A stretch of 32,000 nucleotides of DNA from Erysipelothrix inopinata (GTDB lineage Bacteria; Bacillota_I; Bacilli_A; Erysipelotrichales; Erysipelotrichaceae). The stretch spans positions 1-32,000 of the forward strand of contig NZ_CP060715.1 of NCBI RefSeq assembly GCF_014396165.1, given 5' to 3'. The notes beneath the pieces were generated by a model. That model searched no databases. It was not told the origin of the DNA and was given only the letters and a program-made list of their open reading frames with translations. Of the stretch, positions 147 to 28,308 are shown one piece after another (the first letter of the stretch is position 1; each line of letters begins with the position of its first letter). The position numbers were made by a program, and so were the translations under genes.

Positions 147-1070
147 TTAAATATAATGATCTAAGGGATTCTGAGAAAATGCCATCAGTTCATTATAGAC
201 ACGCCAGTATAGAAGGTGTTCAGGTTTATTATTAAGATCAAAGGTCGTGACTAATTGCAAGTAGAACCTTGAAACATCATGATCCTTCAATTTAATCCAC
301 TTGATATCATTTCGTTTTAGAACATTACTAAATTCGTAAGGGAGTACACTGACAGAATCATAAGCAGCAACATGCTCCACAACTACTTCCCAGTTTTCAT
401 TTTGGTAGACAATATTAGGTTCAAATCCCAGCTTGCGACAGCGATTTGGTATTTCATTACCTACGGCATAATCTTTCGTCACCATAGAAAACTCACAATC
501 TTTTAAATCTTCAAGAGTTAGCTCTGTGCGATTAAAAAGCGGATTGCGGTGTGATACCACCACTCCAACATCATAATAGTATCCTTTTAAGTAATTAGCA
601 TTAGTCTCAAGTTTTGGAAAATATACAGGTTGGGATATCAGAGCCATATCAATTTCACCTTGGATCAACATACTTTGAATTTCTTTGGAACCTCTTTGGA
701 CGAAGATTAGATCATATTGTTTATACTTTTTTCTAAAACTTTCGAAAGCATCCATGTAGTTAATCGAGGAGAGTGTCGTGAGACCAAAGCGAATTTCTCG
801 ACGATAAAGTTCTGTTTCAGTTTTAAGCGATCTTTCAAGACGTGCAAAATTTTCAAGAACTTCTTTACTTCCTTCATAGAGAATTTGCCCACTTGGTGTC
901 ATTTCAATGCCATGATTATAACGCTCTAGTAATTGTATTCCTAGTTCTTCCTCTAGCTGTTTGATACTCCAACTCAAAGCAGGTTGGGTAACGTGCAAAA
1001 GTCGTGAGGCGGAAGAAAAACTTCCGGCCTCAACGACTGTAACATAGTATTTTAAATCCTTTACATCCAT
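147..1070 (-). CDS. LysR-family transcriptional regulator
   Basis: 307-aa ORF. The N-terminal winged-HTH signature (LKYYVTVVEAGSFSSASRLLHVTQPALSWSIKQLEEELG) is typical of LysR, followed by a substrate-binding-domain-length C-terminus. A GAGGA RBS sits 12 nt after the buk stop, so it is probably the last gene of the operon. Confidence 0.9.
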   Translation of the reverse strand: MDVKDLKYYVTVVEAGSFSSASRLLHVTQPALSWSIKQLEEELGIQLLERYNHGIEMTPSGQILYEGSKEVLENFARLERSLKTETELYRREIRFGLTTLSSINYMDAFESFRKKYKQYDLIFVQRGSKEIQSMLIQGEIDMALISQPVYFPKLETNANYLKGYYYDVGVVVSHRNPLFNRTELTLEDLKDCEFSMVTKDYAVGNEIPNRCRKLGFEPNIVYQNENWEVVVEHVAAYDSVSVLPYEFSNVLKRNDIKWIKLKDHDVSRFYLQLVTTFDLNNKPEHLLYWRVYNELMAFSQNPLDHYI

Positions 1071-1082: not shown

Positions 1083-2144
1083 TTATCTTTTGAAAATCTG
1101 TACCGGTTCTTCTTTGGAATAGGCACGATATCCTCCGAATGCGAGTGCTTCAAGTTCAAATTCGCGAGGATACACGATGATGGGACCCAAAAACTCAGTC
1201 CGTTCTGTGATCCAATCCATAATGCGTTTGGATCGCGCAAATCCGCCACTAATTACAATGCCATCAATCTTTCCATGAAGTACAGGACTGAGACTTGCAA
1301 TCGATTTTGAGATTTGATAAGCCATTGCTTCTAAGATATAAGCAGCTTCTTCATCACCTTGCTCAATTCGTTGTTCAATAATTCTGACATCATTGGTATC
1401 AAGATATGAAACCAATCCACCGACGTGTCTCATTTTCTTGATAACGCTTTCTTTGTCTTCATTATAGCATAGATTCATAAAGAGTCGTAACGGTAATCCG
1501 CCACTTCTTTCAGGAGAGAATGCTCCCTCATCATCGGAAACGATATCAACCATTCTTCCCTTCTCATGAGCTGAAACAGTAATACCACTTCCTGCATGAA
1601 CGACAATTAGATTTAGTTCTTGATATGGACGGCCAATCTCAGAAGCATAATTAATCGCAGCGGCCCTTGAGTTTAACATATGACCAATACTCTTACGATC
1701 CATTCCTTTAAGACCAGAAGGTCTTGCGAGAGGACCAAATTGGTCTACTGAAATTGGATCATAAATGTAAGCGACACAATCCTTAGCTTGATCAACAAAT
1801 TTTTGAGCAATCGAAGCTCCTAGGTTTGCAGGATGAATGACTTCAGAGTCGTTTAACAAGTAATCAATCAACTCTGGTGTTACCGCAATTGCTCCTGCGT
1901 CAACGGGTGGTAAAATACCACCACGTCCTACGGCAATATTAATTTCTGTTGGATCATATCCTTTTGCTACCAGTACATCATAGATCGATTGGTAACGATC
2001 CTCCAATTGATCTTTCATGGTTGGGTACTGAGCAATTTGTTCTTTTGTGTACTGAACTTCATCTTGAAACAATTCAACATATTTATCAAATAAGGCAAAT
2101 TTTGTTGATGTTGCTCCAGGATTAATACTTAAAATTAGAGTCAT
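1083..2144 (-). CDS. buk: Butyrate (branched/short-chain acyl) kinase
   Basis: 353 aa with an N-terminal ILSINPGATSTKFALFD phosphate-1 motif of the acetate/butyrate kinase (ASKHA) family. Length and sequence fit Buk rather than AckA. ATGA overlap with the ptb stop. Confidence 0.9.
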   Translation of the reverse strand: MTLILSINPGATSTKFALFDKYVELFQDEVQYTKEQIAQYPTMKDQLEDRYQSIYDVLVAKGYDPTEINIAVGRGGILPPVDAGAIAVTPELIDYLLNDSEVIHPANLGASIAQKFVDQAKDCVAYIYDPISVDQFGPLARPSGLKGMDRKSIGHMLNSRAAAINYASEIGRPYQELNLIVVHAGSGITVSAHEKGRMVDIVSDDEGAFSPERSGGLPLRLFMNLCYNEDKESVIKKMRHVGGLVSYLDTNDVRIIEQRIEQGDEEAAYILEAMAYQISKSIASLSPVLHGKIDGIVISGGFARSKRIMDWITERTEFLGPIIVYPREFELEALAFGGYRAYSKEEPVQIFKR

Positions 2145-3049
2145 ATTTTTTTATTCCTTTCAGCGATAAAACAAGAAAGTAATATTGAATTAATTTTTTC
2201 ATCTTCCATCGACCCTCGTGATGTCAGGATAATAGGAACTTTAGCACCTTGAATGATGCCTGCCATCTTACCATCAGTGAGTAATGTTCCGGCTTTTCCA
2301 AGAATATTACCACTTATAATATCTGGAACAATTAGGATATTCGCGTCCCCTTGAATCTTCCCTTTGTACTGTTTCACATCCACTGCTTCTTTAGAAATAG
2401 CAAGATCTAAAGAGATAGGTCCTTCAAGAATGGCATTTTCCCATTCAAGTTGTGCTAATTTTTCGGACTCAAATGATGATGGAATTCTTGGATTGGTATG
2501 TTCTGCAGCATCAAGTAGTGCTACTTTTGGAACTTCAATACCGATAGCATGAGCTACAGATATTGTATTTTCAATGATCCCAATTTTTTGTTCATAAGTT
2601 GGATAAGGAATCATACCTCCATCACTGACAAAGTACATAGCATTGCGATGGGGAATTTCTGTTAAAGCAACATGGGAGAGAACTTTTTGTTCACGAATCC
2701 CTGTTTCTTTGTTGACCACAGCTTTCAATAAGTCACTCGTTTGAATAAAACCTTTCATAATGAGTTCAACCTCACCCTTACGAGCCATCTCAACTGCTAT
2801 CTGTGCTGCTTTAACGGGATCCTGTTGGTCAATAATTGTATAAGCGGTATGAAGTTCGCTGTCTACCATTAGTGTCTCAATTTCCTTTTTATCTCCAATG
2901 AGAATGGGTTCAATATAACCACGCTTTGCGACATTATCAACTGCAAGCAAGGCACTGGCTTCATGAGCACAAACTAATGCAAGTTTCTTTTTTGTTATTT
3001 TATTTCTAACGAGTACAGCTTCCAGTTCAACAAAATTCTTCATAGTCAC
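2141..3049 (-). CDS. ptb: Phosphate butyryltransferase (phosphotransacylase)
   Basis: 302 aa of the PTA_PTB family. It aligns by eye with clostridial Ptb (blocks MKG..T, SHVA, VAHAIGIE.PKVA, LTSR) and has the short Ptb length rather than Pta length. Confidence 0.88.
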   Translation of the reverse strand: MTMKNFVELEAVLVRNKITKKKLALVCAHEASALLAVDNVAKRGYIEPILIGDKKEIETLMVDSELHTAYTIIDQQDPVKAAQIAVEMARKGEVELIMKGFIQTSDLLKAVVNKETGIREQKVLSHVALTEIPHRNAMYFVSDGGMIPYPTYEQKIGIIENTISVAHAIGIEVPKVALLDAAEHTNPRIPSSFESEKLAQLEWENAILEGPISLDLAISKEAVDVKQYKGKIQGDANILIVPDIISGNILGKAGTLLTDGKMAGIIQGAKVPIILTSRGSMEDEKINSILLSCFIAERNKKI

Positions 3050-3051: not shown

Positions 3052-4101
3052 CTACTGTACATCAATGAAATAGTCTTCAGATTTAACCATTTTCTTCATA
3101 TTAACAAAGACATAGCGGAATAAGAATGCGAGCGCTACTGGTACTACCACAAATGTGATTGTTGCACGAAGGATATTAGGGAATGTCCAGCCACCTGCTA
3201 AGTTAATAGCATTTACCGGTCCAATAAGTCCACTAATTCCAAATCCAGCTGACATTGGTGTTCCTTGTTGTCCTAAGATAGCACATACAAGTCCACTTAC
3301 AGCGGCATTAGCAAGGATAGGCATCATAATCTTAGGTTGCTTGATTACATTAGGCATTGCCATTTTTGGTGATCCAAGAATTAAAGCAATGTTTGTACCA
3401 ACTTCATTTGATTTCCAACCTGTAATAGCTAATCCGAATGCTGCAGCACAGATACCGACGTTTGCAGCACCTGATCCAACACCTGCTAGGTTTACAGCAA
3501 GTGCGATACCTACTGTGGATAGTGGTGATACAATCATCATCGCAAAGATAATTGCCATGAGTACTGACATTACAATTGGTTGTAGGTCAAGTAAGTAGCT
3601 GATTCCTTGAGCAACGGCTCCGGTAATTTTTTGAACATATGGTAATAAGAATAAACCAAGTCCACCCGCAACAATTAGTATCAGTGTTGGTACAAGCAAC
3701 ATGGTATACGCTTTAAATCGATTACCAAAGTATAGAACCATAATTACAGCTATTGTGGCAGTGAGTGTCATATTAATAATGTCACCACTTCCTTTAAATA
3801 AGAAACCGTCAGCTGTAAGTTTCCAAGCACCCGATCCCATTCCAGTCGCCATAGCAACCGAAACTGTTTGAATTGGTGTAAACTTAAACATCATTGAAAT
3901 TGCTACCCCAACTGCAACTCCCATCATGGTCATCGCAAGTGCCGTTGCATTTAAGACAAACTGACCTTGCGGAAATACAGGTAATAATGCTTTAAACAAT
4001 TCATTAAGTAATGCACCAGGAATTAACACAACTACGGATCCTACTGCAACACCATTCAGAATTTTCATTCCGAATCCTTTTTCGAATATTTTGTTTTTCA
4101 T
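3052..4101 (-). CDS. Polytopic membrane protein, PTS EIIC-like (EIIC_2-type) orphan permease
   Basis: 349 aa, about 10 hydrophobic segments, Gly/Ala-rich. It shares long blocks with the paralog at 11287-12315: LIPGALL, GNRFKAYT.LLVPT, MIVSP.ST.G.A.A..LAG.GSGAAN.GICAA.FGLAI.G, LGSPKM, GTP.SAGFGISGLIGP. From memory it resembles the PF13303-type EIIC family, which needs HMM confirmation. Own GAGAAGGGA RBS, 11 nt after the pdhD stop and 2 nt before the ptb start. Confidence 0.6.
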   Translation of the reverse strand: MKNKIFEKGFGMKILNGVAVGSVVVLIPGALLNELFKALLPVFPQGQFVLNATALAMTMMGVAVGVAISMMFKFTPIQTVSVAMATGMGSGAWKLTADGFLFKGSGDIINMTLTATIAVIMVLYFGNRFKAYTMLLVPTLILIVAGGLGLFLLPYVQKITGAVAQGISYLLDLQPIVMSVLMAIIFAMMIVSPLSTVGIALAVNLAGVGSGAANVGICAAAFGLAITGWKSNEVGTNIALILGSPKMAMPNVIKQPKIMMPILANAAVSGLVCAILGQQGTPMSAGFGISGLIGPVNAINLAGGWTFPNILRATITFVVVPVALAFLFRYVFVNMKKMVKSEDYFIDVQ

Positions 4102-4112
4102 AGTCCCTTCTC

Positions 4113-5519
4113 CTATATGTGTATTGGTAATCCAAGAGCTAATTCAGATACATCCATTATCATTTCTCCAAGTGTTGGATGGGTATGAATGATTAATGAA
4201 ATGTCTTCAACTGTAAGGTTGGATTCGATAGCCATCGTTAATTCTCCAATTAACTCACTTGCATGTTCTCCAACAATCTCTGCACCAATTACAGCATTTG
4301 ATTCTTTTTCTGTAATGATGCGTACAAAACCAAGTGTTTCATTCATTGAAAGTGCACGTCCGTTTGCAGCATAAGGGAATTGGTATGCTTTAGCATCGTA
4401 TCCAGCTTCCTTCGCTTGTTGTAAGTTATGACCTACAACTGCAATTTCAGGTGATGTGAAGCATACTGCTGGAATAACACTGTAGTCAAATCCTGCAGCA
4501 TGACCATTGATAACCTCTGCAACCACTTTTGCTTCATAAGATGCTTTATGAGCAAGTGCTGCCCCAGGAACAATATCACCGATTGCGAAAATAGTTTCTA
4601 CAGATGTACGACCTTGATCATCAATTTCAACTAAACCACGATCGGATACTTTCACATCTGTATATTCAAGACCAATATCATCCGTATTCGGACGACGTCC
4701 TACAGTAACGAGTACATAGTCAACATCCATGGATTCAATTTTTCCATCTGATTCATAACTGACAGTTACTGATTTTTCATTGTTTTTAGCTTCTTTAGCT
4801 AATACATTTGTTTTGATTGTGACACCTTTTGATTCATAATCTTGCTCAACAAATTTCACTAAATCTTTTGAAAAGTTTGGCAAGATTTGTTTTGAACCTT
4901 CAAGAATTGTGACCTTCGTCCCTAAGTTTGCGAACACATTAGCCAATTCACATCCAATGTAGCCTCCCCCAACGATTGCGAGAGATTTTGGAATATGTTC
5001 CAAGTTCAAGACTACGGTTGAATCAAGAATTCGACCACCAAATTTAAAACCTTTAATTTGAATTGGATGACTTCCTGTCGCAAGAATACAGGTGTCAAAT
5101 GTATAAGTTTGTCCTGCATCTTCGGTAACAACACGAATTTTGCTGTTATCAACAAAGTGTGCCTCACCTTTTACAATTTCAACTTTATTTTTTCTTAGTA
5201 AAGCCTGTATTCCTTGCGTTAGTTGCTTCACCACTTGGGTATTCTTCCATTCTTGAGTCAATTTCATATCAAGTTCTGGTTTTCCAAGTTTTAGTCCGTA
5301 TGGGTTGCCTTGAAGGCTACGATGATAGTTTTCACTTACATGAATCATGGCTTTTGAAGGAATACAACCTACATTAAGGCATGTTCCTCCAATCTCATCA
5401 CGTTCAACAATCGTGACTTTTTGCCCTAATTGGGCAGCGCGGATTGCTGCGACATAGCCACCAGGGCCACTCCCAACAACCACGCACTCAAGATGTTTTG
5501 CGAAATCTCCAACTACCAT
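4113..5519 (-). CDS. pdhD: Dihydrolipoyl dehydrogenase (E3)
   Basis: 468 aa with FAD motif GSGPGGY, redox-active disulfide GGTCLNVGCIPSK and C-terminal HTHPTLGE His-Glu dyad. Confidence 0.95.
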   Translation of the reverse strand: MVVGDFAKHLECVVVGSGPGGYVAAIRAAQLGQKVTIVERDEIGGTCLNVGCIPSKAMIHVSENYHRSLQGNPYGLKLGKPELDMKLTQEWKNTQVVKQLTQGIQALLRKNKVEIVKGEAHFVDNSKIRVVTEDAGQTYTFDTCILATGSHPIQIKGFKFGGRILDSTVVLNLEHIPKSLAIVGGGYIGCELANVFANLGTKVTILEGSKQILPNFSKDLVKFVEQDYESKGVTIKTNVLAKEAKNNEKSVTVSYESDGKIESMDVDYVLVTVGRRPNTDDIGLEYTDVKVSDRGLVEIDDQGRTSVETIFAIGDIVPGAALAHKASYEAKVVAEVINGHAAGFDYSVIPAVCFTSPEIAVVGHNLQQAKEAGYDAKAYQFPYAANGRALSMNETLGFVRIITEKESNAVIGAEIVGEHASELIGELTMAIESNLTVEDISLIIHTHPTLGEMIMDVSELALGLPIHI

Positions 5520-5522: not shown

Positions 5523-6775
5523 TTATCCCTCCAATACAATCTTGTTTGGATCTGATAAGACTTGCTTTAAAGTGTCTAATGCTTGTTGTGCTTCGACACC
5601 ATCGATAATACGGTGATCAAAGGTAAATGATAATTTCATCATTGGTGCAATTTCAATTGCGAGTTCATCATTCACGAATGTATCCATTTCAATTCGAGCC
5701 GTTCCAAGGATACCTACTTCAGGTGCATTGATGATTGGAGTTGAGTAAACACCATCTTTTGATGATCCACCCACATTTGTAATGGTAAATGATCCGTTCA
5801 TCATGCTATCACGAGGTAATTTACCTGCTTCAGCAAGACGTGCATTTTCTTCAATTTCCTTGGAAATTTCAAAGAGATTCTTACGATCTGCATTCTTAAT
5901 GTTAGGAACAACAAGTCCTTGAGATGTATTGGTTGCGACACCAATATTAATAGCATCTCGGTATACAATCTCGTCAGTTTTTTCATCAACATAAGCATTA
6001 AAGATTGGGTAACGTTTTAACATCGTTACTGCAGCCTTTACAAAGTATGCAGTATAAGTAAGTCGAACATCATGTTCTTTTGCATATTCTTTGTATGCTT
6101 CACGATGTGCTACAAGTTCTGTGGCATTAAGTTTTGAAAATACAGTAACACGAGGGATGGTTGACGTAGAATGAACCATTGCTTGCATTGTAGCTTTTCG
6201 AATTGGTGTCATCTTTTCACGACGTTCTCCGCCAGTTGTTGTGATAACTGGTGCCTTTGTAGGTGTCGTTTGTTCTACAACAGGTGTTTCAGATACGACT
6301 GGATCGCCTCCACTTAGATATCCATCAATATCTTCACGCGTTACAGTGTTGTTTTTACCTGTTGCTGTAACTAAATTAATATCTACATTCTTTCGCGTGC
6401 GTATTTACGAACGGATGGAATTGCTTTTGCTTTTTGAGCTGGTTTTTCTTGTTTCGCAACTGGAACTACTGCAGCTGGTGTTTCTGGTTTTGCTTCAGGT
6501 TCCGGTGCTTTTTGAGCTTTATCAGCAGGGACTGCTCCCTCAACTTCAATTTCAAGTAATACTTGTCCTACTTTCGCCACTTCATGTTCCTCAACTAAAA
6601 GTGCCTTAACCTCTCCTGCAACAGGAGATGGTACTTCAATAGTAGTTTTGTCATTTTGGACTTCGAATAGTGGATCATCAACTTTAACGACATCTCCAAC
6701 TTTCACGTCCCAAGCGACAATTTCACTTTCGGTAATTCCTTCTCCAAGATCGGGTAGTTTAAATTTATAGATCAT
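5523..6775 (-). pseudogene. pdhC: Dihydrolipoamide acyltransferase (E2) interrupted by a single-base frameshift
   Basis: ORF 6383-6775 encodes the lipoyl domain (EVQNDKTTIEVPS), an Ala/Pro/Glu linker and the start of the subunit-binding domain (IPSVRKYARE), then hits TAG at 6383-6385. A second frame, open from 6404 downward, continues NVDINLVTATGKNNTVTREDIDGYLSGG, a linker and the catalytic domain with DHRIIDG (ORF 5523-6212). Adding one base in 6386-6404 restores a roughly 417-aa E2. Confidence 0.85.
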
Positions 6776-6783: not shown

Positions 6784-7764
6784 CTAATAATTTTCTGTTA
6801 AATTACGTGCTGTTTGAGCAATATCTTCTGCATTTGGTAACCAAATACTTTCTGCTTGTGGTAACGGATATGTTGTATCTGGTGCTGTTACTCGAGTTAC
6901 TGGTGCTTCAAGTTCTAAGAATAAGCGTTCACTTAGCTCTGACATAACGTGGCTTGCAATTCCAGCTTGACGTTGTGCTTCTTGAATTACGATCACTTTA
7001 CCTGTTTTCGCAACTGACTCTCTCAGTGTTTCAATATCCAATGGTGCGATGATACGCAAGTCAATAACTTCAGCATCGATACCTTCTGCAGCAAGAGTTT
7101 CCGCAGCTTTTTTAGCTTCGTTAACCATTGCTCCATAAGCAATTAATGTAATATCGTTTCCTTCACGAACAACATTTGATTTATCGAGAGGCACTTCATA
7201 AACACCTTCAGGAACTTCCATTTTTTCACCACGATACAATTTTAAGTGTTCCAAGAATACGACAGGGTCATTACTCTTGATGGATGAAATTAAAAGTCCT
7301 TTTGCGTCATAAGGGTTTGATGGAACAACAACACGAATACCAGGCATTTGTGCAATCATTCCTTCATAACTATCTGAGTGAATTTCAGGTGTTCCAACAC
7401 CACCACCAAATGGACTTCTTAATGTGATTGGGCAGTGTAGTTGTCCGGCTGTACGATATCTCATACGTGCCATTTGGTTTGTAAGTGAATCAATCGCTTC
7501 TGTTACGAATCCAAAGAATTGAATTTCTGGGATGGGTCTGAACCCTTCAACACCTAAACCAATAGCAAGGCCTAAAATACCTGACTCAGCGAGTGGTGTA
7601 TCAAAAACACGTTGATCGCCATGTTTGGCTTGAAGTCCATCAGTAGCTCTAAAGACACCACCGTTTTTCCCAACATCTTCACCAAATATCAATGTTTTAT
7701 TATCTTGTTCTAACATTACATCTAACGCATCGGTAATCGCTTCAACCATATTTTTGTTAGCCAT
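6784..7764 (-). CDS. pdhB: 2-oxoacid (pyruvate-type) dehydrogenase E1 beta subunit
   Basis: 326 aa, collinear by eye with Bacillus PdhB ([58 protein letters not shown]). Confidence 0.92.
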
Positions 7765-7766: not shown

Positions 7767-8864
7767 TTATTGATTCTCCTTTTCTTTATATATTTCATAC
7801 TGTTCTTCCAGTGCTGGTGGCATGACTTCAAACATATTCTTCAAGTAACCTGATACGGTTTGTTTTGGAACATGACGTGAGTCTTCCATTGCTTGTTTCA
7901 CTTCTTCTTGTGTTTTTTCAATGATAGCTTCTTCTTTTTCTTCTGACCAAAGACCTTTATCTGTAAGATAATTTCTCATTCGAATAAGTTGATCTTTAGG
8001 ACGCCATTTCTCAACCATTTCATCATCACGATAACGTTTTGGATCATCACTTAATGTATGCGGTCCATAGCGGAATGTAAGGAATTCAAGAAGAACTGGT
8101 CCATTACCTTCGACAGCATATTCACGAGCAGCACGTGTTGCTGCATAGACTGCGAATGGGTCCATTCCATCTACAAACAGATGAGCAATCCCAACACCCA
8201 CACCTTTTTGCGAAAGTGTTTTTGCACGTGTTTGGAATGAACGTGGCACCGAAATACCAAATCCATTATTTTGAGCGATAAAGATAACTGGTGCATCGTA
8301 AGCCCCCGCAAAGTTAATTCCTTCGTAGAAGTCACCTTGTGATGTACCACCATCTCCAATATATGTCATGGCTACATTTTTCTTATTATTTAACTTTAAT
8401 CCAAGTCCAACCCCTGCTGCTTGGATAATTTGTGCTCCAATAATAACTTGAGGTGGGAATGATTTAATTGATGAATCATAGCTGAATCCATCCGTATGTC
8501 CGTTATACCAGTTAATAGCTTTACGTGTTTCTACCCCATGACGAATCATTGGAGGCACATCACGATACGTTGGCAACAGCCAGTCGCCTTGTTCTAAGGC
8601 ATATTGTGAGATTAATTGACTTGCTTCTTGCCCTTCAGTAGGTGGTAAGTTACCAACAATTCCTTGACGGCTCAAGATACTTACACGTTTATTGTATTCG
8701 CGACCCCAAACCATGATTTCCATCATCTCTACTAATTGATCATCAGTAAGTTCAGGCATATAGTCCTTATTAACAATTTTCCCCGTTTCGTCCATTATTT
8801 GAAATGGAACTTGCTCTTTATTTGATTCTTTTACAATTTTCTTGTAGTCTATTTTTTTAGTCAT
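7767..8864 (-). CDS. pdhA: 2-oxoacid (pyruvate-type) dehydrogenase E1 alpha subunit
   Basis: The TPP motif [18 protein letters not shown]...NNGFGIS and the N-terminus ([12 protein letters not shown]...MPELTDDQL) resemble Gram-positive PdhA. I place the start at ATG 8864 (MTKKIDYKK), preceded by an AAAGGA RBS. The 16-codon upstream extension in the ORF track has no RBS. Confidence 0.9.
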
Positions 8865-8978
8865 ACTATGTCCTTTCTCTAATTTTAGGTAAACTAAAAA
8901 CAGTACAAACAATCAAAACTTTTTCTGTGTACACGGTTTGCATATATATGATGTTAGCGCTTTCATCTTTGCAACTTC

Positions 8979-9007
8979 ATTATAGTATCCTATCGAAGTT
9001 CTGTAAA
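8979..9007 (-). promoter_or_regulatory. Sigma-A type promoter of the pdh-ptb-buk operon
   Basis: On the minus strand, TTTACA (9007-9002), an exact 17-nt spacer, then TATAAT (8984-8979). The predicted TSS is near 8972, giving a leader of about 108 nt before ATG 8864. Confidence 0.7.
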
Positions 9008-10291: not shown

Positions 10292-11275
10292 TTATTTAAT
10301 TTCGTTTGGACTTTCGTTTGTTTCTACGAATGATTTTAATGAACGTAATGCAACTTCTACCATGTCAGATACTGCTTGATCTGTATAGAATGCAGTATGT
10401 GGTGTTACGATAACATTTTTATGACGTTCAAGGATTGCTAATTGGTGGTTACTGTATGTACGCATACGGTTATCTGTATGAACAATACCAATTTCATTTG
10501 GGAATACATCAAGAGCTGCTGCTCCAATGTGACCTGATTCAATACCTTCAATTAATGCATCTGTGTCAACAAGTTCTGCACGTGCACAGTTTACGATAAC
10601 AACACCTTGTTTTGTTTTCGCAATATTTTCTCTATTAATAATGTGGTGTGTTGAGTCAAGAAGTGGTGCGTGTAATGTAATAACATCTGCTTCTTTTAGA
10701 AGTGTATCGAGATCAACATATTCTAGGATATCTTTAAGTGATTCATTTTCATATAAATCAAATCCGATAATACGTCCACCAAAACCACTCAGGTTACGTG
10801 CAGTATTTGCACCGATACGTCCTGTACCGATAACACCAAATGTTAAGTTGTGCATTTCTTTACCTTGTAATCCTGGTAATGAGTAATCATGTGCTTCAAG
10901 ACGTTTCATCATTGTTTTCATGTTACGAATTGACATAAGAATTAACATAACTGTAAAGTCAGCAACACAACTTGGTGAGTATGTAGCGTTTGAGAAACGT
11001 AATCCGAGTTCCTTAACAGCTTCCATATCAACATTGTTAAATCCTGCACTACGTGAAGCAAGGTATTTAACACCATGTCCTTGTAGTTTTTCAAGAACTG
11101 GACGGCTTGCGTCACAGTTTCCTAAGAATGTTACAGCTTCAAATCCAGCTGCTTCATCAACATTGCTCATTCCTAATTGACCTTGAACAAATGTAATATC
11201 TAATCCTAATAATTCTGAATATTTTTCAAATGCCGCCTTTTCATCGGGACGGACTGCATAAGCGATTAATTTCAT
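10292..11275 (-). CDS. NAD-dependent D-isomer-specific 2-hydroxyacid dehydrogenase (D-lactate / D-2-hydroxyisocaproate dehydrogenase-like)
   Basis: 327 aa with Rossmann motif GVIGTGRIG and catalytic Arg/Glu/His context (NCARAELVD ... TPHTAFYT) typical of the LdhA/HicDH/VanH family. Confidence 0.88.
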   Translation of the reverse strand: MKLIAYAVRPDEKAAFEKYSELLGLDITFVQGQLGMSNVDEAAGFEAVTFLGNCDASRPVLEKLQGHGVKYLASRSAGFNNVDMEAVKELGLRFSNATYSPSCVADFTVMLILMSIRNMKTMMKRLEAHDYSLPGLQGKEMHNLTFGVIGTGRIGANTARNLSGFGGRIIGFDLYENESLKDILEYVDLDTLLKEADVITLHAPLLDSTHHIINRENIAKTKQGVVIVNCARAELVDTDALIEGIESGHIGAAALDVFPNEIGIVHTDNRMRTYSNHQLAILERHKNVIVTPHTAFYTDQAVSDMVEVALRSLKSFVETNESPNEIK

Positions 11276-11286: not shown

Positions 11287-12315
11287 CTATTTGAAATCGA
11301 TTTTGTAATCTTCAGCAGATACAAGTTTTAATTTATTGTCAAATAAATATGATGACACAAATCCCATAACTACAGGGATGCCTACAAAGACGAGAACTGT
11401 AATCAATAAGTTTCCAGCAGAATAACCTACAATGTTTAAATGATTAATAGGTCCAATAAGACCACTAATACCGAAACCAGCACTTGCAGGTGTACCAACA
11501 ATTGTTAGAATTCCAGCGAATGCACCACATACTGCAGCATTTAAAACGATTGGTAACATCATTTTAGGTTTCTTAATCATGTTTGCCATTTGCATCTTAG
11601 GTGATCCTAAGAAGTGCGCAATACTTGTTCCAACACCATTAACTTTAAATCCAGCAATTGCAAGACCAAATCCAGCAGCACAAATACCTAGGTTTGCAGC
11701 TCCCGAACCAATACCTGCAAGAGAGATAGCCATCGCAACACCCGCTGTAGAAATTGGTGATACAATCATAATTGCGAAAGTAATAGAAATTAAGATTCCA
11801 GCGACAACAGGTGTAAAGCTTGTAAATGCATTAACCATTTGACCAATGAATCCGGTAAATGCTGAAACATAAGGTAACATAATTAAACCAAGTTGGCCAA
11901 CTAAAATAATAACGATAGTTGGTACAAGAAGAATCGTATATGCTTTAAAACGATTCCCAATCATCAACATCACCCAAACAGCAATCGCTGCTGTGATACC
12001 AGCATTAATAACATCACCAATACCCGCAAGTACAAGTGTGCCATCCATAAATTTAATACCACCCGAACCAATTGCAGTTGTAATTGCTAATGTTGCAGAT
12101 TGAATCGGTGTAAGTTTGAATTGCATTGCAATTGTTAGCCCCATAACAACTGCTAATAAGCGTGTTGAGATTGTTGTAAGTTGACTTACAAATTCCCAGT
12201 TTAACGCTTTAGCCAATTCTCCAAGAAGTGCACCAGGTATCAATGCAACAACAATACCAATGCTCATTCCTGTTAAGACTTTATTCGTAAAGTCTTTAAA
12301 TGATAAATCTTTCAT
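11287..12315 (-). CDS. Polytopic membrane protein, PTS EIIC-like orphan permease (paralog of 3052-4101)
   Basis: 342 aa with the same conserved blocks as the 3052-4101 product (roughly half the residues identical by eye). Strong AGGAGGAAAT RBS. Only 11 nt upstream of the 2-hydroxyacid dehydrogenase start. Confidence 0.6.
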   Translation of the reverse strand: MKDLSFKDFTNKVLTGMSIGIVVALIPGALLGELAKALNWEFVSQLTTISTRLLAVVMGLTIAMQFKLTPIQSATLAITTAIGSGGIKFMDGTLVLAGIGDVINAGITAAIAVWVMLMIGNRFKAYTILLVPTIVIILVGQLGLIMLPYVSAFTGFIGQMVNAFTSFTPVVAGILISITFAIMIVSPISTAGVAMAISLAGIGSGAANLGICAAGFGLAIAGFKVNGVGTSIAHFLGSPKMQMANMIKKPKMMLPIVLNAAVCGAFAGILTIVGTPASAGFGISGLIGPINHLNIVGYSAGNLLITVLVFVGIPVVMGFVSSYLFDNKLKLVSAEDYKIDFK

Positions 12316-12386: not shown

Positions 12387-13205
12387 TTATTCAATTCTTA
12401 TCTGAATTTCTTGGATCATTGTTTCGTCTGATTTTGAAAATGTGTAGTCAACAATGCAAAAATCGCAGATATTTCCAACAGGTTTATACCCATGTTCTGT
12501 ACACCAATCAAGGAGTACTTGATAAGATACTGTGTCGTAATAACCGCCTTTTTTGTACATACAAGCGTACTTTCCTGCAGGTAATGTACATTTTTGTGGT
12601 GCATCCAAATCGGATGACAACATGATAAACGAACCTACTTTCGATAAATAGTTCTCTGAAGAATCTGTGGGTTCCATACAAATTGTGCCATAAGGCATTT
12701 GTGAAAATATGCTCATATCGTTCAAATTACGAAGCATCTTGCGGTATGCTAACATAACTTCAACCACACTATTCTCATTTTCGCACAGTTCATACATTAC
12801 AACACGATCCTCAAAAAACTTGATACTTGGGTGGTTTAAATCCCTTTCATCGATTAAATCAGCCTCTTTATAGAACTTCAACAGGTACTCTAGGTCATGC
12901 TTTTTAGTCATATTTCGAGCTATTTCAACATTAACCTCTGTGAGTTTTTCTTTCAATTTGTCAATTAACGGTTCAAATCGTCGATCACCCAGTAGTTCCT
13001 GAATTTCTGTTAATGAAAATCCGAGATCCTTTAAGTAAATAATCTGCTTTAAATACGGAAATTGCTCTCGTACGTAATAGCGATATCCTGTTTCTTCATC
13101 GATGTGATCTGGCATAAAGAGTCCGATTCTGTCGTAGTATAATAAAGTCTTCTTGCTCAAGTTATGGAGCTTTGCGACCTCATTGATTAAAAAGTTTGTT
13201 TTCAT
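12387..13205 (-). CDS. MerR-family transcriptional regulator with C-terminal GyrI-like effector-binding domain (BmrR-like architecture)
   Basis: N-terminal MerR HTH (FLINEVAKLHNLSKKTLLYYDRIGLFMPDHIDEETGYRYY), a coiled-coil linker, then a GyrI-like C-terminus (LPAGKYACMYKKGGYYDTVSYQVLLDWCTEHGYKPVG ... IQIRIE). I place the start at ATG 13205 (MKTNF) behind an AGGTGAG RBS. The 54-codon upstream extension in the ORF track runs across a terminator and promoter. Confidence 0.88.
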   Translation of the reverse strand: MKTNFLINEVAKLHNLSKKTLLYYDRIGLFMPDHIDEETGYRYYVREQFPYLKQIIYLKDLGFSLTEIQELLGDRRFEPLIDKLKEKLTEVNVEIARNMTKKHDLEYLLKFYKEADLIDERDLNHPSIKFFEDRVVMYELCENENSVVEVMLAYRKMLRNLNDMSIFSQMPYGTICMEPTDSSENYLSKVGSFIMLSSDLDAPQKCTLPAGKYACMYKKGGYYDTVSYQVLLDWCTEHGYKPVGNICDFCIVDYTFSKSDETMIQEIQIRIE

Positions 13206-13223
13206 ATTCTCACCTATGCCTCT

Positions 13224-13251
13224 ATTATACATTTTTCCGTTACCAAGGCAA
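13224..13251 (-). promoter_or_regulatory. Candidate promoter of the MerR-family gene
   Basis: On the minus strand, TTGCCT (13251-13246), a 16-nt spacer, then TATAAT (13229-13224), immediately after the upstream terminator. Confidence 0.45.
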
Positions 13252-13275
13252 AAAAAAAGTCGCATAAGGCGACTA
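13250..13275 (-). terminator. Intrinsic terminator of the glucosaminidase / glycyl-radical mini-protein transcript
   Basis: On the minus strand, AGTCGC-cttat-GCGACT followed by T9 (plus-strand A-run 13250-13258). Confidence 0.75.
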
Positions 13276-13411
13276 CTTCGATATGTTTTCTTATGTTTGC
13301 GTCTAAAGAGATAACTATCGTAAGCTGACAATGACATTCTAACGCATTGATGCTTCATGACATCCAATATGTCATGAAAGTCATAAATAATGTTATCAAC
13401 GACACAAATTA

Positions 13412-15407: not shown

Positions 15408-15445
15408 AAGCCGCTATACACTTTAATGTATAACGGCTTTTGTTT
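15408..15445. terminator. Bidirectional intrinsic terminator between convergent genes
   Basis: Stem AAGCCGcTATACA (15408-15420) pairs with TGTATAaCGGCTT (15427-15439), followed by TTTTGTTTT on the plus strand. Confidence 0.8.
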
Positions 15446-16809
15446 TATATTACAAGTTTACCTGGATTTAAACGATTCGTAGGATCAAAGCTTGTCTTAA
15501 TGCTTGACATTAAGTCAAGATATACAGGATCCATCATTTTACCAAAATATTTCTTTTTAATTATGCCGATACCGTGCTCAGCAGATGGGAGACCACCTAA
15601 TTCTTGAATCTTATTATAGAGTAGATTAAGAACAGTATCTAAGGTTTCATGCCATTCACTGTCTGATTCGATATCACCACGGAGTACACAAGTGTGTAAG
15701 TTTCCATCCCCAGCATGTCCAAAACTCATAAGTTTTAATCCATACTTAGCTTCTAATTCTTTTGTATATTCATAGATCGTTGCGATATGATGAATTGGTA
15801 CTGTTTCATCCATCGTGACTTGTTCAGTATAATTAACAACTGCCGTCAACAAGGTATCACGCAATTTCCATGCATCTTTTTCAGATTGTCCTTCAAGAAT
15901 AATATAGTCCTCAGCTTCATGCTTGTCGGCTATTTCTTTTAAAACACCTGCACGTTGATCAATAAATGAAGCATCATCGCCATCAAAAGTTGCAAGTAAG
16001 AAGGAATGTCCCTTTTTAGTAGGGAATACCAAACCTGTTTCTTTCTCGCTAAGTTGAATCATGTCACGTTCAAAGAACTCTAGCGCTGTTGGTGCTATTC
16101 CTGAATGAAGAATTGTATTCACACAACGGGTTGCTTCTAACAAGTTATCAAATGCAATAATATATGATTTCTTAACTTTTGGTAAAGGAATAACCTTCAA
16201 TTGAATGAGTGTACTAATTCCTAATGTTCCTTCCGAACCAATGAAGAGATCCTTAATATCATACCCTGAACTTGATTTAACGTTAAGGGTTCCTACCGTC
16301 AATTCACGACCATCTGCAAGTACTAAACGGATCGTTCGAACGTAGTCTCTCGTTACACCATACTTCACTGCACGCATCCCACCAGCATTGGTAGCAACGT
16401 TTCCGCCAATCGTAGAATTCTTTGACCCTGGATCTGGCGGATAGAAAAATCCACGTGACTCAACATACTCTTGAATCTCATGCAATTGAACACCAGGTTC
16501 AACCGTTAGAGTCATTGTATTTAAATCCAAATCAATAATTTTATTCATTTTTGATAAATCTATAATAAGTTCATTTTCAAGCGGTGCGGTAGCTCCTGAG
16601 AGACCGGTGCCTGCTCCCCTTGCAATAATCTTTAAATCTTTTTCATTGGCATATTTAACTAAAGCCACGACTTCTTCATGTGTTAAGGGTAATGCTACAG
16701 CATGAACACTTTTTGCTTGCCCAACATATTCATCAAAAAGATAGTCTTGTCCAACTTCATCCCCAATAAATAAGCGAGATGAATCTTTAATGATTTCTAC
16801 TAATTCCAT
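15445..16809 (-). CDS. FAD-linked oxidase, GlcD / D-lactate (D-2-hydroxyacid) dehydrogenase family
   Basis: PCMH-type FAD-binding domain (ARGAGTGLSGA) and the C-terminal FAD-oxidase_C signature (HAGDGNLH ... SAEHGIG). I place the start at ATG 16809 (MELVEII) because a GGAGGT RBS lies inside the first four codons of the ORF-track start. Confidence 0.88.
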   Translation of the reverse strand: MELVEIIKDSSRLFIGDEVGQDYLFDEYVGQAKSVHAVALPLTHEEVVALVKYANEKDLKIIARGAGTGLSGATAPLENELIIDLSKMNKIIDLDLNTMTLTVEPGVQLHEIQEYVESRGFFYPPDPGSKNSTIGGNVATNAGGMRAVKYGVTRDYVRTIRLVLADGRELTVGTLNVKSSSGYDIKDLFIGSEGTLGISTLIQLKVIPLPKVKKSYIIAFDNLLEATRCVNTILHSGIAPTALEFFERDMIQLSEKETGLVFPTKKGHSFLLATFDGDDASFIDQRAGVLKEIADKHEAEDYIILEGQSEKDAWKLRDTLLTAVVNYTEQVTMDETVPIHHIATIYEYTKELEAKYGLKLMSFGHAGDGNLHTCVLRGDIESDSEWHETLDTVLNLLYNKIQELGGLPSAEHGIGIIKKKYFGKMMDPVYLDLMSSIKTSFDPTNRLNPGKLVI

Positions 16810-16852
16810 ATTTACCTCCATACGGTAATTATAGTTGAAAGGGCTTTACGTT

Positions 16853-16912: not shown

Positions 16913-17272
16913 TTACTTGAAATCTTTACCATCAAATATGATTATATCTCCTTTTTCAGGAGTATAAGTTATTGACTCAACAGTCCCATCTGTAGTATTT
17001 CTTGTCACTTTTACATCTGCATCAGGTTTACCTGCTTTTGTAGCAGTCTCTGCATCGATACTTTCACCAACTTTTGTTTCAGCAGCTACCACTGATGCGG
17101 CAGTAAACAAACTTCTTGCATCTGCTTGATTTTTAGATGTATTTGCACTTCCAATATACCCACTCATTGCTGGGATTAAGATTAGTGCTAAGATTGCTAA
17201 GATAGCAATTACAATTACCAGTTCAATTAATGTAAATCCTTTTTTATTGTTTTGTTTTTTGATTAGTTTCAT
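16913..17272 (-). CDS. pilA: Type IV major pilin (prepilin with class III signal peptide)
   Basis: MKLIKKQNNKKG|FTLIELVIVIAILAILALILIP gives a Gly-Phe cleavage site, Glu at +5 and a hydrophobic alpha-1 helix. 119-aa precursor. GAGAGGGGA RBS before ATG 17272. It starts 16 nt after the pilB stop. Confidence 0.88.
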   Translation of the reverse strand: MKLIKKQNNKKGFTLIELVIVIAILAILALILIPAMSGYIGSANTSKNQADARSLFTAASVVAAETKVGESIDAETATKAGKPDADVKVTRNTTDGTVESITYTPEKGDIIIFDGKDFK

Positions 17273-17288
17273 TTTATTTATCCCCTCT

Positions 17289-18965
17289 CTAATCATCAAT
17301 TACTACTTCACTTCCGTATAGAATCTTTTGTGCTTCTTCGACTGTTGTATCCCCTCCCTTCACAAGGCGCATGACATCATCCCTTAGAAAAGCTATGTTT
17401 CGTGAACGTGCATAGTCAACAAGCTTATGCATCGGTTCCTGCTGGGTAATGAGGTTTTGCATGGTTGCATCAATGGGTACCACTTCAAACACCGCAGTAC
17501 GGCCTGCGTAGCCTGTGTGGTTACATCGATCACAACCTTCTCCTTTAAATTGATAACTTAAGCTTGGTTCTTTTAAAGCAATCCGATCTGATTCAGACAC
17601 GGCTACTTTATGTTTACAATGGCGACAATTTTTTCGAACCAATCGTTGTGCAATAACACACTTCACGGATGAGGCAACCAAGAATGGTTCAACACCCATA
17701 TCGATAAGACGCGTTACGGATGAAAGTGCATCATTGGTATGTAAGGTTGATAATACAAAGTGACCCGTAATCGCAGCCCGAATCGCAATTGAAGCTGTCT
17801 CTGCGTCCCGAATTTCACCAACCATGATTACATCAGGATCAAGTCGTAAAATCGATCTTAGTCCCGATGAGAATGTTAACCCTGCTTTATTATTTATTGT
17901 AACTTGTGAGATACCTTCAAAGTGTTTCTCAACTGGATCTTCAATTGTGATCACACTTTTTTCTGGAGCATTAATCTCTGAGAGCATTGAATAGAGTGTT
18001 GTTGTTTTTCCACTACCTGTTGGCCCCGTAATTAATAAGATTCCGTTAGGCAATTGCATGATATCTCTGAGTTGTCTTTTAATACTGTCAGATAAATCCA
18101 GTTTATCAAGATCATAATCAATGTTCTTTTCACTTCCTAATAAACGCATAACGACCTTTTCTCCATATCCTGAAGGAATCGTTGCAACTCGCATATCAAG
18201 TTTCATTTTGGGATTATCAATGCGAAAAGCACCATCTTGAGGAATTCGTTTTTCCGCAATGTTCATGCTGGATATGATTTTTATTCTCGTAATCATTGGA
18301 TCGTGAAGTTCACGTCTAACCTTCATGAAGTCCTTAAGTTGACCGTCAATTCTAAATTTCACATTCGTATACGTTTCTTCAGGATTAATATGAATATCAC
18401 TGGCATTAACTTCATACGCATGGGTAATGATTGAATTTACTAGTTTTACAACTGGAGCAGATTCAACACGTTCAATAAGTGCTTTATCTTCTGTTGATAT
18501 TTCGATTTCTCCCAACAAATTATCATCATCAATTTTTCCATATGAATGAAGTTTATTAATGGCAGATTCGATAGCCATCGAACTTGAAACGACAAGGTTG
18601 GTGTTCATTCCCGTCATCATAGAAAGATTTTCCATAGCTTCAAAATTGAAAGGATCTGCCGATGCAAAGGTCAATGTGCCTTCTTTAATAAAAAGCGGAA
18701 CAATTTCATGTCGTTTTAAGAAAGCCTCACTAACAATATTTTGTAATTCTTGATCAACCTTTTGTGAGGGATCATCTATAAACTCTAGTCCCAATTTTCG
18801 AGTCGTAAATTTTAAGACATCAGTCTCCGTGATGTATCCATGATCAAGTAAAATATGTTCTAAAGGCTCAAATGTTTTTCTTTGTACCGACAGGACTTCA
18901 TTCAATTGATCTTTAGTAATCATCTTTTCTTCTACAAGCATTTTTCCAATATTGAAATTGTTCAT
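17289..18965 (-). CDS. pilB: Type IV pilus assembly (extension) ATPase, GspE/PilB family
   Basis: 558 aa with an N-terminal GSPII_E_N-type domain, Walker A GPTGSGKTTT, Walker B/Asp box DPDVIMVGEIRD, His box GHFVLSTLHTNDA and a tetracysteine CRHC...CDRC. GAAAGGA RBS. Confidence 0.93.
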   Translation of the reverse strand: MNNFNIGKMLVEEKMITKDQLNEVLSVQRKTFEPLEHILLDHGYITETDVLKFTTRKLGLEFIDDPSQKVDQELQNIVSEAFLKRHEIVPLFIKEGTLTFASADPFNFEAMENLSMMTGMNTNLVVSSSMAIESAINKLHSYGKIDDDNLLGEIEISTEDKALIERVESAPVVKLVNSIITHAYEVNASDIHINPEETYTNVKFRIDGQLKDFMKVRRELHDPMITRIKIISSMNIAEKRIPQDGAFRIDNPKMKLDMRVATIPSGYGEKVVMRLLGSEKNIDYDLDKLDLSDSIKRQLRDIMQLPNGILLITGPTGSGKTTTLYSMLSEINAPEKSVITIEDPVEKHFEGISQVTINNKAGLTFSSGLRSILRLDPDVIMVGEIRDAETASIAIRAAITGHFVLSTLHTNDALSSVTRLIDMGVEPFLVASSVKCVIAQRLVRKNCRHCKHKVAVSESDRIALKEPSLSYQFKGEGCDRCNHTGYAGRTAVFEVVPIDATMQNLITQQEPMHKLVDYARSRNIAFLRDDVMRLVKGGDTTVEEAQKILYGSEVVIDD

Positions 18966-18982
18966 CGAATCATCCTTTCTTT

Positions 18983-18991
18983 TGCTATAAT
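18983..18991 (+). promoter_or_regulatory. Extended -10 promoter element for pilD in the 42-bp pilB/pilD divergent gap
   Basis: TGcTATAAT at 18983-18991, 16 nt before ATG 19008. No good -35. Confidence 0.45.
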
Positions 18992-19007
18992 AGTGCTGGG
19001 TGATAAT

Positions 19008-19742
19008 ATGGGGATAACGATTTTCTGCTTTGGCCTAATCATTGGTTCCTTCTTAGGAGTCGTGATTAATCGCCTTCCACGTCATGAATCATTGGTTTAT
19101 GGACGTTCTCATTGTAATGAATGTAAACATGACCTAGGTCCAAGAGATTTAGTTCCGGTCATAAGTTATTGTTTAAGTAAAGGTACGTGTCGTTATTGTA
19201 AAACGAAGTTACCCTTGCGCTATCCGTTATTGGAACTCATCACAGCGTTTGCCTATCTTGGTGTTTCAATTACGAGTTCTACAAACATTGATTTAATCTT
19301 AAATTTAATTTTTGTATCACTGCTTATCTGCATTACTTTTATAGATATTGATACGTTTATGATATTTGATCGTTTTCATGTTCTCATTGCAATTCTTGCA
19401 ATTCTACGAATTATTACATTTAATCTTTCTTGGATAGATCACTTGATTGGCGCATTGGTCATCAGTGTTCCTTACTTAATTCTCGCCATATTGACCCAAG
19501 GTATGGGCGGTGGCGATATTAAGCTTGTTGCTGCATTAGGACTTTATCTGGGGGTAAACCCCATGTTGATGAGCTTTATGCTTACCTCCATCATTGGTGG
19601 CGTGTACGCCATTGCTCTACTTCTTACTAAGAAGAAATCAATGCAGGCGCAACTTCCATATGGACCGTTTATTTGCATTGGGGCTTACATAGCACTCGTG
19701 GCCTATCAAGACATTATTATTTGGTATTTAAGCTTTTTCTAA
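19008..19742 (+). CDS. pilD: Prepilin peptidase / N-methyltransferase (A24 family)
   Basis: The start MGITIFCFGLIIGSFLGVVINRLP is typical. Cys pairs CNEC...CRYC are present. Catalytic Asp contexts are FIDIDTFMIFD and GMGGGDIKLVAALG. The ORF-track start at 18882 would overlap the pilB start codon region, so I chose ATG 19008. Confidence 0.9.
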   Translation: MGITIFCFGLIIGSFLGVVINRLPRHESLVYGRSHCNECKHDLGPRDLVPVISYCLSKGTCRYCKTKLPLRYPLLELITAFAYLGVSITSSTNIDLILNLIFVSLLICITFIDIDTFMIFDRFHVLIAILAILRIITFNLSWIDHLIGALVISVPYLILAILTQGMGGGDIKLVAALGLYLGVNPMLMSFMLTSIIGGVYAIALLLTKKKSMQAQLPYGPFICIGAYIALVAYQDIIIWYLSFF

Positions 19743-19753
19743 CTGGATGACTT

Positions 19754-21860: not shown

Positions 21861-21871
21861 ACTATCCCTCC

Positions 21872-25475: not shown

Positions 25476-25492
25476 ATTTCCCCCCAAAGCAA

Positions 25493-25514
25493 TTAATTGG
25501 TCTAGACCAATTAA
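25493..25514. promoter_or_regulatory. Perfect 22-bp palindrome (candidate operator or 5' leader hairpin) at the head of the pilus operon
   Basis: TTAATTGGTCT|AGACCAATTAA has 11-bp arms and no spacer. It lies 18 nt upstream of ATG 25475 and directly downstream of the predicted -10. Confidence 0.6.
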
Positions 25515-25521
25515 CATATAT

Positions 25522-28303: not shown

Positions 28304-28308
28304 TTGAG

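Follow-up and report, generated by a model that had tools for sequence, protein, structure and literature searches.

A candidate PTS-independent carrier of 2-oxo monocarboxylates with an EIIC-like fold in a keto-acid operon of Erysipelothrix inopinata

The DNA analysed here (the window) is a stretch of 32,000 nt from the bacterium Erysipelothrix inopinata (assembly GCF_014396165.1, contig NZ_CP060715.1, positions 1 to 32,000). On its minus strand, a tightly packed row of genes runs in the order E1a-E1b-E2-E3-X-ptb-buk-LysR, in which the subunits of a 2-oxoacid dehydrogenase complex (E1 alpha, E1 beta, E2 and E3), a phosphotransacylase and a butyrate-type kinase are encoded co-linearly, as in the keto-acid catabolic operon of the Enterococcus faecalis type. 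The gene between E3 and ptb, called X1 hereafter (its paralogue in the window is X2, and X stands for the family as a whole), encodes a membrane protein of a Pfam family named after Enzyme IIC (EIIC) of the phosphotransferase system (PTS). Here, we describe this locus, the family to which X1 belongs and the genes that accompany its homologues, and propose that X may be a carrier of 2-oxo acids that operates independently of the PTS.

The operon around X1

The boundaries of X1 can be read directly from the DNA. Between the E3 stop codon (TAG, 4113-4115) and the X1 start codon (ATG at 4101) lie 11 nt (GAGAAGGGACT), and a Shine-Dalgarno sequence (AGGAGAAGGG) overlaps the E3 stop, 8 nt ahead of the ATG. 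An initial annotation, made by a model from the sequence alone, had placed X1 within E1a-E1b-E2-E3-X-ptb-buk at this distance from E3 and with its own ribosome binding site, and the reading frame, the spacing and the Shine-Dalgarno sequence all agree with it. Its gap of 2 nt to ptb stands for one of two possible starts: the X1 stop codon (TAG, 3052-3054) is followed 2 nt on by a GTG (3049) and 8 nt on by an ATG (3043), the latter after AGAGGTG. The ATG appears to be the likelier ptb start, so that the gap amounts to 2-8 nt, with 8 nt the probable value. Further along, buk and ptb overlap by 4 nt. No convincing terminator-like site was found at the E3/X and X/ptb junctions. The top promoter-like site in 13.5 kb scores 11/12 and lies about 115 nt upstream of the E1a start, and the seven consensus matches in the region are no more than occur in shuffled sequences. 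An Rfam scan of the window returned no riboswitch or leader match. The coordinates of all these features are collected in Table 1.

The enzyme set of a 2-oxoacid dehydrogenase operon is present as first annotated, with two corrections: E2 is split by a 1-nt deletion, and the E1 subunits are of the pyruvate dehydrogenase (PDH) lineage, not of the canonical branched-chain 2-oxoacid dehydrogenase (BCKDH) lineage. E1a scores 416 bits against Geobacillus stearothermophilus PDH E1a versus 186 against BCKDH, and E1b 490 bits versus 316. E1a is barely above the PDH equivalog TIGR03181 (417 versus 411), and E1b and E2 fall below their cut-offs. Since the E1 subunits are nearer to PDH than to BCKDH, either pyruvate or a different 2-oxo acid is conceivable as the substrate. 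The operon E1b proteins of Virgibacillus and Vagococcus score about 456 bits against Geobacillus PDH E1b, by our estimate lower than expected of a housekeeping Bacillaceae orthologue, which suggests a PDH-lineage paralogue.

Table 1. Features of the X1 operon and of the X2 gene group in the window
Feature	Coordinates	Strand	Remarks
X1	3052..4101	minus	349-aa polytopic membrane protein, PF13303 (PTS_EIIC_2); candidate PTS-independent 2-oxo-monocarboxylate carrier
E3-X junction	4102..4117	minus	E3 stop TAG, 11 nt, Shine-Dalgarno AGGAGAAGGG; read from the sequence
E3, dihydrolipoyl dehydrogenase	4113..5519	minus	TIGR01350, 539 bits versus cut-off 408.8
E2, dihydrolipoyl acyltransferase	5523..6775	minus	split: lipoyl domain 6383-6775, catalytic domain 5523-6212; no NCBIfam cut-off passed
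E1 beta, PDH-lineage 2-oxoacid dehydrogenase	6784..7764	minus	from bit scores to PDH versus BCKDH
E1 alpha	7767..8912	minus	likely true start ATG 8864, preceded by GAAAGGA
Best sigma-70-like promoter match	8979..9007	minus	TTTACA-17-TATAAT; consensus match only
ptb, phosphate butyryltransferase-like (PTA_PTB)	2141..3049	minus	best matches are phosphate butyryltransferase models, below cut-offs
buk, butyrate kinase	1083..2144	minus	TIGR02707, 351 bits versus 289; NF002834, 393 versus 222
LysR-family regulator	147..1070	minus	best NCBIfam match CidR
X2, PF13303 paralogue	11287..12315	minus	324.8 bits to PF13303; 51% identical to X1
D-isomer-specific 2-hydroxyacid dehydrogenase (LdhA/VanH/HicDH-like)	10292..11275	minus	11 nt downstream of X2
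MerR-family regulator with GyrI-like effector domain	12387..13367	minus	directly upstream of X2, same strand

Family, fold and conserved residues of X

Along its full length, X1 matches PF13303 (positions 1-325 of the 327 in the profile) at 316.5 bits, where the cut-off is 28.9, and with an E value of 2.4e-94; this bears out its first description as a polytopic carrier of the PTS EIIC_2 type. No NCBIfam model matched X1. The closest genome record is an Erysipelothrix sp. metagenome-assembled genome (MAG) in which the protein is 99% identical, followed by E. aquatica, E. rhusiopathiae and E. larvae at 70-74% identity. In an exhaustive search, about 500 clusters of 50%-identity representatives match the family at E values up to 1e-3, and a motif-based scan finds relatives in 479 species-level genomes. 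As the broad alignments (A1, A3) were too diverse, narrow ones were used for this genome scan, and it therefore returned only members that are at least 50% identical to X.

An AlphaFold2 model of X1, built from a 60-sequence alignment, has a mean pLDDT of 95.1 and a pTM of 0.91. When it is compared with the PDB by Foldseek, the only high-probability matches are EIIC proteins of the glucose superfamily (probability 1.0, E 6e-5 to 7e-3, TM 0.45-0.48): a model of Escherichia coli PtsG, the PtsG cryo-EM structures of Vibrio cholerae and E. coli, and Bacillus cereus MalT (bcMalT). The next entries reach a probability of at most 0.23. Because Foldseek returns glucose-superfamily EIICs only, the label 'EIIC-like' is right at the level of the fold, and the comparison with elevator-type EIICs that the initial annotation had proposed leads to PtsG and bcMalT and nowhere else. 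The model also shows the helix-break and hairpin elements expected of an elevator-type transport domain. At the sequence level, phmmer detects no similarity of X1 to PDB entries, and hhalign, run with the family alignment against PtsG and ChbC of E. coli, gives no significant result. A correspondence between the GSPK motif of X1 and GITE of PtsG came from one weak local hhalign alignment and was set aside as unreliable.

Alongside this shared fold, X differs from the glucose-superfamily EIICs (PtsG of E. coli and V. cholerae, MalT of B. cereus, ChbC) in several respects. It is about 100 residues shorter and has no fused or adjacent EIIB or EIIA. The longer members of the family carry unannotated N-terminal extensions and, in one case, a GNAT fusion, and no EIIA or EIIB domain was found fused to them. 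X also does not conserve the GIxE motif, whose glutamate EIICs need for substrate binding and phosphotransfer and which is present in PtsG (GITE 295), MtlA (GIHE 254) and FruA (GILE 374): in a search by sequence pattern, which also missed E. coli ChbC, it occurs in 8 of 60 family members and at scattered positions. Instead, X has an invariant lysine in GSPK, and its gene neighbours act on 2-oxo acids, not on sugar phosphates.

The family has no conserved histidine column, and its sole conserved acidic residue is Asp107. The conserved polar positions are D107, K/R128, S/T195, T/S196, K/R230, N232, K246 and N251, and the signature of X1 consists of D107, S195/T196, N232, GSPK (243-246), N251 and SAGFGISG (284-291). 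In the model, K246 sits at a one-residue helix break between helices 234-243 and 245-254. Every one of the 90 sequences of the branch found in keto-acid contexts has this lysine (76 with such a context, 8 without and 6 plasmid copies), whereas 84 of 85 sequences of a distant branch of the family have methionine at the same position. Judged from these alignments, such a branch-specific positive charge is what a carboxylate-binding residue would look like.

Gene neighbourhoods and the search for phosphotransferase partners

The neighbourhoods of 84 X genes were surveyed: the 80 best-scoring of 479 genome loci, two Erysipelothrix loci from a protein index, and the window. They span about 30 genera and four phyla, and all 80 genome loci are at least 50% identical to X. 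Six-frame open reading frames (ORFs) around each gene were searched with the enzymes of the window itself and with three neighbour families confirmed by Pfam. In total, 74 of the 84 X genes lie inside, or directly adjacent to and on the same strand as, a 2-oxoacid dehydrogenase/ptb/buk operon, a D-2-hydroxyacid dehydrogenase (HADH) or a PanE-type reductase.

The first of these contexts, with X inside E1a-E1b-E2-E3-X-ptb-buk, accounts for 28 loci, one of which is cut by a contig end and shows X-ptb-buk only. It is found in 12 named genera of Erysipelotrichia, Bacillales, Lactobacillales and Actinomycetota, among them Erysipelothrix, Virgibacillus, Pontibacillus, Carnobacterium, Macrococcoides, Eremococcus, Facklamia, Lactobacillus pasteurii, five Streptococcus species and the actinobacterium Bowdeniella. 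In Vagococcus the order is rearranged (E3-X-E1a-E1b-E2-ptb-buk), with X still within the cluster.

A LysR gene accompanies the operon in most of the surveyed loci, and one also stands with X in most Streptococcus HADH contexts (in S. agalactiae the order is LysR, X, HADH) and in Listeria. X might accordingly act as a membrane sensor or 'transceptor' that reports external 2-oxo acids to an adjacent LysR or MerR regulator, and some database entries do call an X-family protein a 'regulator'. We regard this as extremely improbable: X has no cytoplasmic signalling domain, its transporter fold is complete, and plasmid-borne pairs of PanE and X come without a regulator.

In the second context, a reductase of the PanE/ApbA family lies directly downstream of X on the same strand (27 loci; Granulicatella, Streptococcus and Carnobacterium), and in the third, an HADH holds this place (19 loci; Streptococcus, Clostridium, Actinomycetaceae, Ligilactobacillus, the fusobacterium Oceanivirga and X2). 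The pairing of X2 with a 2-hydroxyacid dehydrogenase had been recognized from the start. The window and three streptococci hold paralogues of both the operon type and the HADH type. On a neighbour-joining tree of X, built without bootstrap, the three contexts are interleaved, with the operon in at least four clades and HADH in at least four; the pairing with these enzymes must therefore have been re-made repeatedly.

X is also found on plasmids. By tblastn, a PF13303 gene is present on 239 plasmids, of which 190 are enterococcal or lactococcal (153 Enterococcus, 37 Lactococcus). On plasmids of E. faecalis (L099), E. faecium (L102) and L. lactis (pIL4, L101), a gene annotated as '2-dehydropantoate 2-reductase' lies 12-25 nt upstream of X, and on L. 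salivarius pMP118 an HADH is divergently adjacent to it. The plasmid reductase-X modules are carried by mobilisable or conjugative plasmids, beside IS6, IS30, IS982 or mob genes, and their X is about 39% identical to X1. In Staphylococcus schleiferi (L185, 7001-10844), X is convergent with alsS-alsD of the pyruvate-consuming acetolactate pathway.

A lipoate or thiamine carrier serving the dehydrogenase complex was also considered, and rejected because HADH and PanE need neither cofactor.

Two of the 84 loci, in an Atopostipes MAG and a Virgibacillus MAG, have an adjacent class I/II aminotransferase as their context. L011, L012 and L020 have such an aminotransferase as an immediate neighbour of X, two Clostridium loci have one within about 1.1 kb of X, and in one locus of the distant branch an aminotransferase is convergent to X. 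X might thus import the parent branched-chain or aromatic amino acids, to be transaminated to 2-oxo acids in the cell. We consider this quite improbable, as the 74 X genes named above are paired directly with 2-oxo-acid enzymes, mostly without a clustered aminotransferase, and as Asp107 is the sole acid conserved family-wide that could pair with an amino group. A dedicated branched-chain amino acid transporter, BrnQ, is moreover already encoded within 2-3.6 kb of X in 13 PanE-context loci. In the X-PanE loci of Granulicatella and Streptococcus, BrnQ is 2-3.6 kb upstream and on the opposite strand, with nucleoside hydrolase and Dps-like ferritin genes in between; loci with BrnQ upstream are L028, L031, L032, L036, L040, L043, L052, L063, L066, L067 and L076.

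The distant branch, at most 30% identical to X, comes from gut MAGs of Onthovivens, Erysipelotrichaceae and Clostridia (L104-L183, L091-L096). A gene with a RelA_SpoT domain, resembling small alarmone synthetases, is directly downstream of X in 14 of its 86 loci.

PTS partners were sought around the same genes with a panel of E. coli K-12 proteins (HPr, EI, Crr, UlaABC, ChbABC, GatAB, ManXYZ, MtlA, FruAB and SrlAEB), run by phmmer against all six-frame stretches of at least 50 codons. The search recovered its positive controls (EI, a ChbC-type EIIC, FruA and Crr), and found HPr, EIIA or EIIB within 4.5 kb of none of the 84 X genes, with a sensitivity limited by the E. coli queries. The count of homologues beside keto-acid enzymes versus EIIA/EIIB genes, which the initial annotation had called for, therefore stands at 74 against none. 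A further 92 loci (six plasmid records, six index loci and 80 metagenome loci of the distant branch) were covered for 4-7 kb on each side where the contig allowed, and show no PTS genes near X apart from a complete glucitol PTS operon 1.9 kb away on pMP118. The annotated plasmid copies, S. agalactiae and the distant branch, too, lack PTS partners beside X. Among the operon partners next to X, none metabolises a phospho-sugar: the neighbours are the 2-oxoacid dehydrogenase complex, Ptb, Buk, D-2-HADH, PanE, aminotransferases and LysR, in keeping with the earlier remark that they act on 2-oxo acids and acyl derivatives.

The window itself was said to contain no EIIA, EIIB or HPr gene. None was found in its 32 kb, although a gene for PTS Enzyme I (ptsI, 567 aa; 26293-27996, minus strand) had been overlooked. 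No HPr gene lies next to it, the upstream gap of 300 nt (27997-28308) holding no HPr-like ORF of at least 30 aa.

X could be a true EIIC that takes up and phosphorylates a sugar or a sugar acid by means of EIIA and EIIB proteins from distant genes, and that came to lie in the operon by chance. Pfam classes the family as EIIC, the fold matches, and Enzyme I is encoded 22 kb from X1. We nonetheless judge this very improbable, given that EIIA, EIIB and HPr are beside X in 0 of 176 loci and fused to it in none, that GIxE is unconserved, that no neighbour acts on a phosphorylated sugar, and that chance does not account for X being paired, in four phyla, with three unrelated families of 2-oxoacid enzymes.

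Proposed function, related systems and further window genes

The only metabolite common to the dehydrogenase complex, HADH and PanE is the 2-oxo acid. We therefore favour import, as the products of the three partner enzyme classes differ. We propose, with a probability of roughly 0.6, that X, by means of the elevator-type EIIC fold of the glucose superfamily, carries 2-oxo, possibly also 2-hydroxy, monocarboxylates independently of the PTS, and that it is most likely an importer in this operon. Profile matches, predicted fold and neighbourhoods thereby support the carboxylate carrier first suggested for X1. The substrate class is most likely a 2-oxo monocarboxylate with its side chain left open. 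A CidR-like LysR protein (CidR being the cidABC regulator) and the alsSD neighbour in S. schleiferi hint at pyruvate as effector or substrate, and since some operons encode HisC-like aminotransferases, aromatic 2-oxo acids are candidates too.

What we infer for X, that is, transport itself, substrate, direction and coupling ion, would fit together as follows. X1 would import an external 2-oxo acid, which the co-transcribed PDH-lineage complex would convert into an acyl-CoA, and Ptb and Buk would turn the acyl-CoA into the free acid and ATP, as in the bkd pathway of E. faecalis. X2 would feed or drain the adjacent D-2-hydroxyacid dehydrogenase. The binding site is predicted to form from the tips of two re-entrant hairpins (SPLST 191-195 and SAGFGISG 284-291) and the helix break at GSPK 243-246, where Lys246 may pair with the carboxylate of the substrate. 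Transport would be coupled to H+ or Na+, with Asp107 as a candidate site, and not to phosphoryl transfer.

The gene contexts fit the efflux of products equally well. X could export the end products (short or branched fatty acids, 2-hydroxy acids) or exchange them for an incoming 2-oxo acid, which is how precursor/product antiporters in the 2-hydroxycarboxylate transporter family work. Lactic acid bacteria usually form 2-oxo acids inside the cell from amino acids, and the BrnQ genes of the PanE contexts and the aminotransferases adjacent in a few loci suit such a source. This alternative is in our view unlikely. The products differ by context (fatty acids without a 2-substituent versus 2-hydroxy acids) and the substrate class is shared, so that one carrier family suits the substrate better than the products. 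Undissociated short-chain fatty acids also cross membranes without a carrier. In the E. faecalis pathway, as studied by Ward in 1999, the keto acid was reportedly supplied in the medium, which would require uptake.

Several points count against an importing 2-oxo-acid carrier. The survey sample is skewed to close relatives, and many of its loci with a PanE context come from MAGs that nearly duplicate one another. Eight of the 84 X genes, including those of Tetragenococcus and of three Ligilactobacillus, have no informative neighbour, and the sampled loci of the distant branch show neither a PTS nor a keto-acid enzyme context. As to direction, 2-oxo acids can form inside the cell by transamination, which leaves import open to question, and the nearby BrnQ genes point the same way. 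With Enzyme I present in the genome, and only 22 kb from X1, an EIIA and EIIB encoded elsewhere could conceivably serve X. Lys246 is placed in the binding site by its secondary-structure position only. Within the operon itself, the deletion that splits E2 lies near 6383, where the window reads CGCGA-AAGAATG and the closely related MAG L003 reads CGTGAGAAGAATG, with an intact E2 ORF of 417 aa. The break (window 6212-6390) is either an assembly error or the mark of a recent pseudogene. Finally, full-text literature searches found no functional study of the PF13303 family; in the only paper found to cite the accession, it serves as a general marker of the PTS.

The closest described counterpart of the operon is the ptb-buk-bkdDABC cluster of E. 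faecalis, through which branched-chain alpha-keto acids are turned into the matching fatty acids, perhaps with a gain of ATP (PMC3716772, citing Ward 1999). It comprises the same enzymes (E1a, E1b, E2, E3, phosphotransbutyrylase and butyrate kinase) and follows the same logic, from 2-oxo acid to acyl-CoA, acyl phosphate and finally acid plus ATP. The part of PMC3716772 that describes the cluster names no transporter, whereas the Erysipelothrix operon has a transporter gene inside it, between E3 and ptb. The E1 subunits of the window, in addition, are far nearer to Geobacillus PDH than to BCKDH. For the bkd cluster of L. paracasei, the Figure 3 legend of the same paper gives eight genes, including PanE, and names seven functions (PMC3716772). 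The eighth might be a PF13303 carrier. In the literature searched, no transporter was found to be reported for keto-acid uptake of the E. faecalis type.

Several bacterial carriers of pyruvate or other 2-oxo acids are known: BtsT/CstA, the TRAP system TakP, MctC/MctP, the LrgAB-type PftAB and the BASS-family ketopantoate carrier PanS. They do the job that we propose for X and belong to unrelated families and folds; to our knowledge, none has the EIIC fold and none is known inside a dehydrogenase-ptb-buk operon. The concept of an EIIC permease without phosphotransfer has a precedent in EIIC homologues of the SgaT/UlaA family that lack EIIA and EIIB, for which a role as secondary carriers has been proposed on bioinformatic grounds. 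These belong to a different EIIC superfamily (ascorbate), and the substrates proposed for them are sugars or sugar acids, whereas the gene context of X points to 2-oxo monocarboxylates. The PF13303 family and its fold are known. What appears to be new is a keto-acid role that does without the PTS, along with the operon shared across phyla, the mobile module of PanE and X, and K246 as a signature residue.

If the proposed function is true, thousands of annotations, and the metabolic models derived from them, would be wrong, as PF13303 proteins are annotated across the Firmicutes as 'PTS sugar transporter subunit IIC'. It would name the missing uptake step of the pathway from keto acids to ATP, as well as the uptake or release step of keto-acid to hydroxy-acid conversions (in cheese flavour, and in gut isovalerate, hydroxyisocaproate and phenyllactate). 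It would also mean that the EIIC elevator fold can serve as an ordinary secondary carrier for small carboxylates, and it yields a prediction for a single residue, K246. The module is mobile, being carried by 190 plasmids of enterococci and lactococci, and this suggests a trait that can be selected for in dairy and gut environments. A wider proposal, to which we give slightly less than even chances, is that a branch of the EIIC fold gave up phosphotransfer and became the missing alpha-keto-acid uptake system of Gram-positive bacteria, with K246 binding the carboxylate at or near the place of the classical catalytic glutamate, and that its gene travels both as a plasmid 'reductase + carrier' module and inside the keto-acid-to-ATP operons of pathogens (Erysipelothrix, pyogenic streptococci).

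Three further gene groups of the window may be mentioned. At 15445-16821 (minus strand), 3 kb from the X2-HADH pair, lies a gene for a 458-aa FAD-linked oxidase of the GlcD/D-lactate dehydrogenase type (FAD_binding_4 and FAD-oxidase_C), another potential oxidiser of 2-hydroxy acids. From 16913 to 25517, mostly on the minus strand, a cluster resembles type IV pilus or competence-pseudopilus systems. Pfam identifies a T2SSE ATPase in it (17289-18965), and the translations suggest a prepilin-peptidase-like polytopic protein (18882-19742, plus strand) and a platform-like protein (21872-23062) as well as, in several short ORFs, hydrophobic N-termini like those of pilins. Finally, V/A-type ATPase genes occupy 28309-31998 on the minus strand: a D-like ORF (28309-28917), a B-like ORF (28919-30364), the one scanned with Pfam, which has an ATP-synt_VA_C match, and an A-like ORF that runs to the end of the window.

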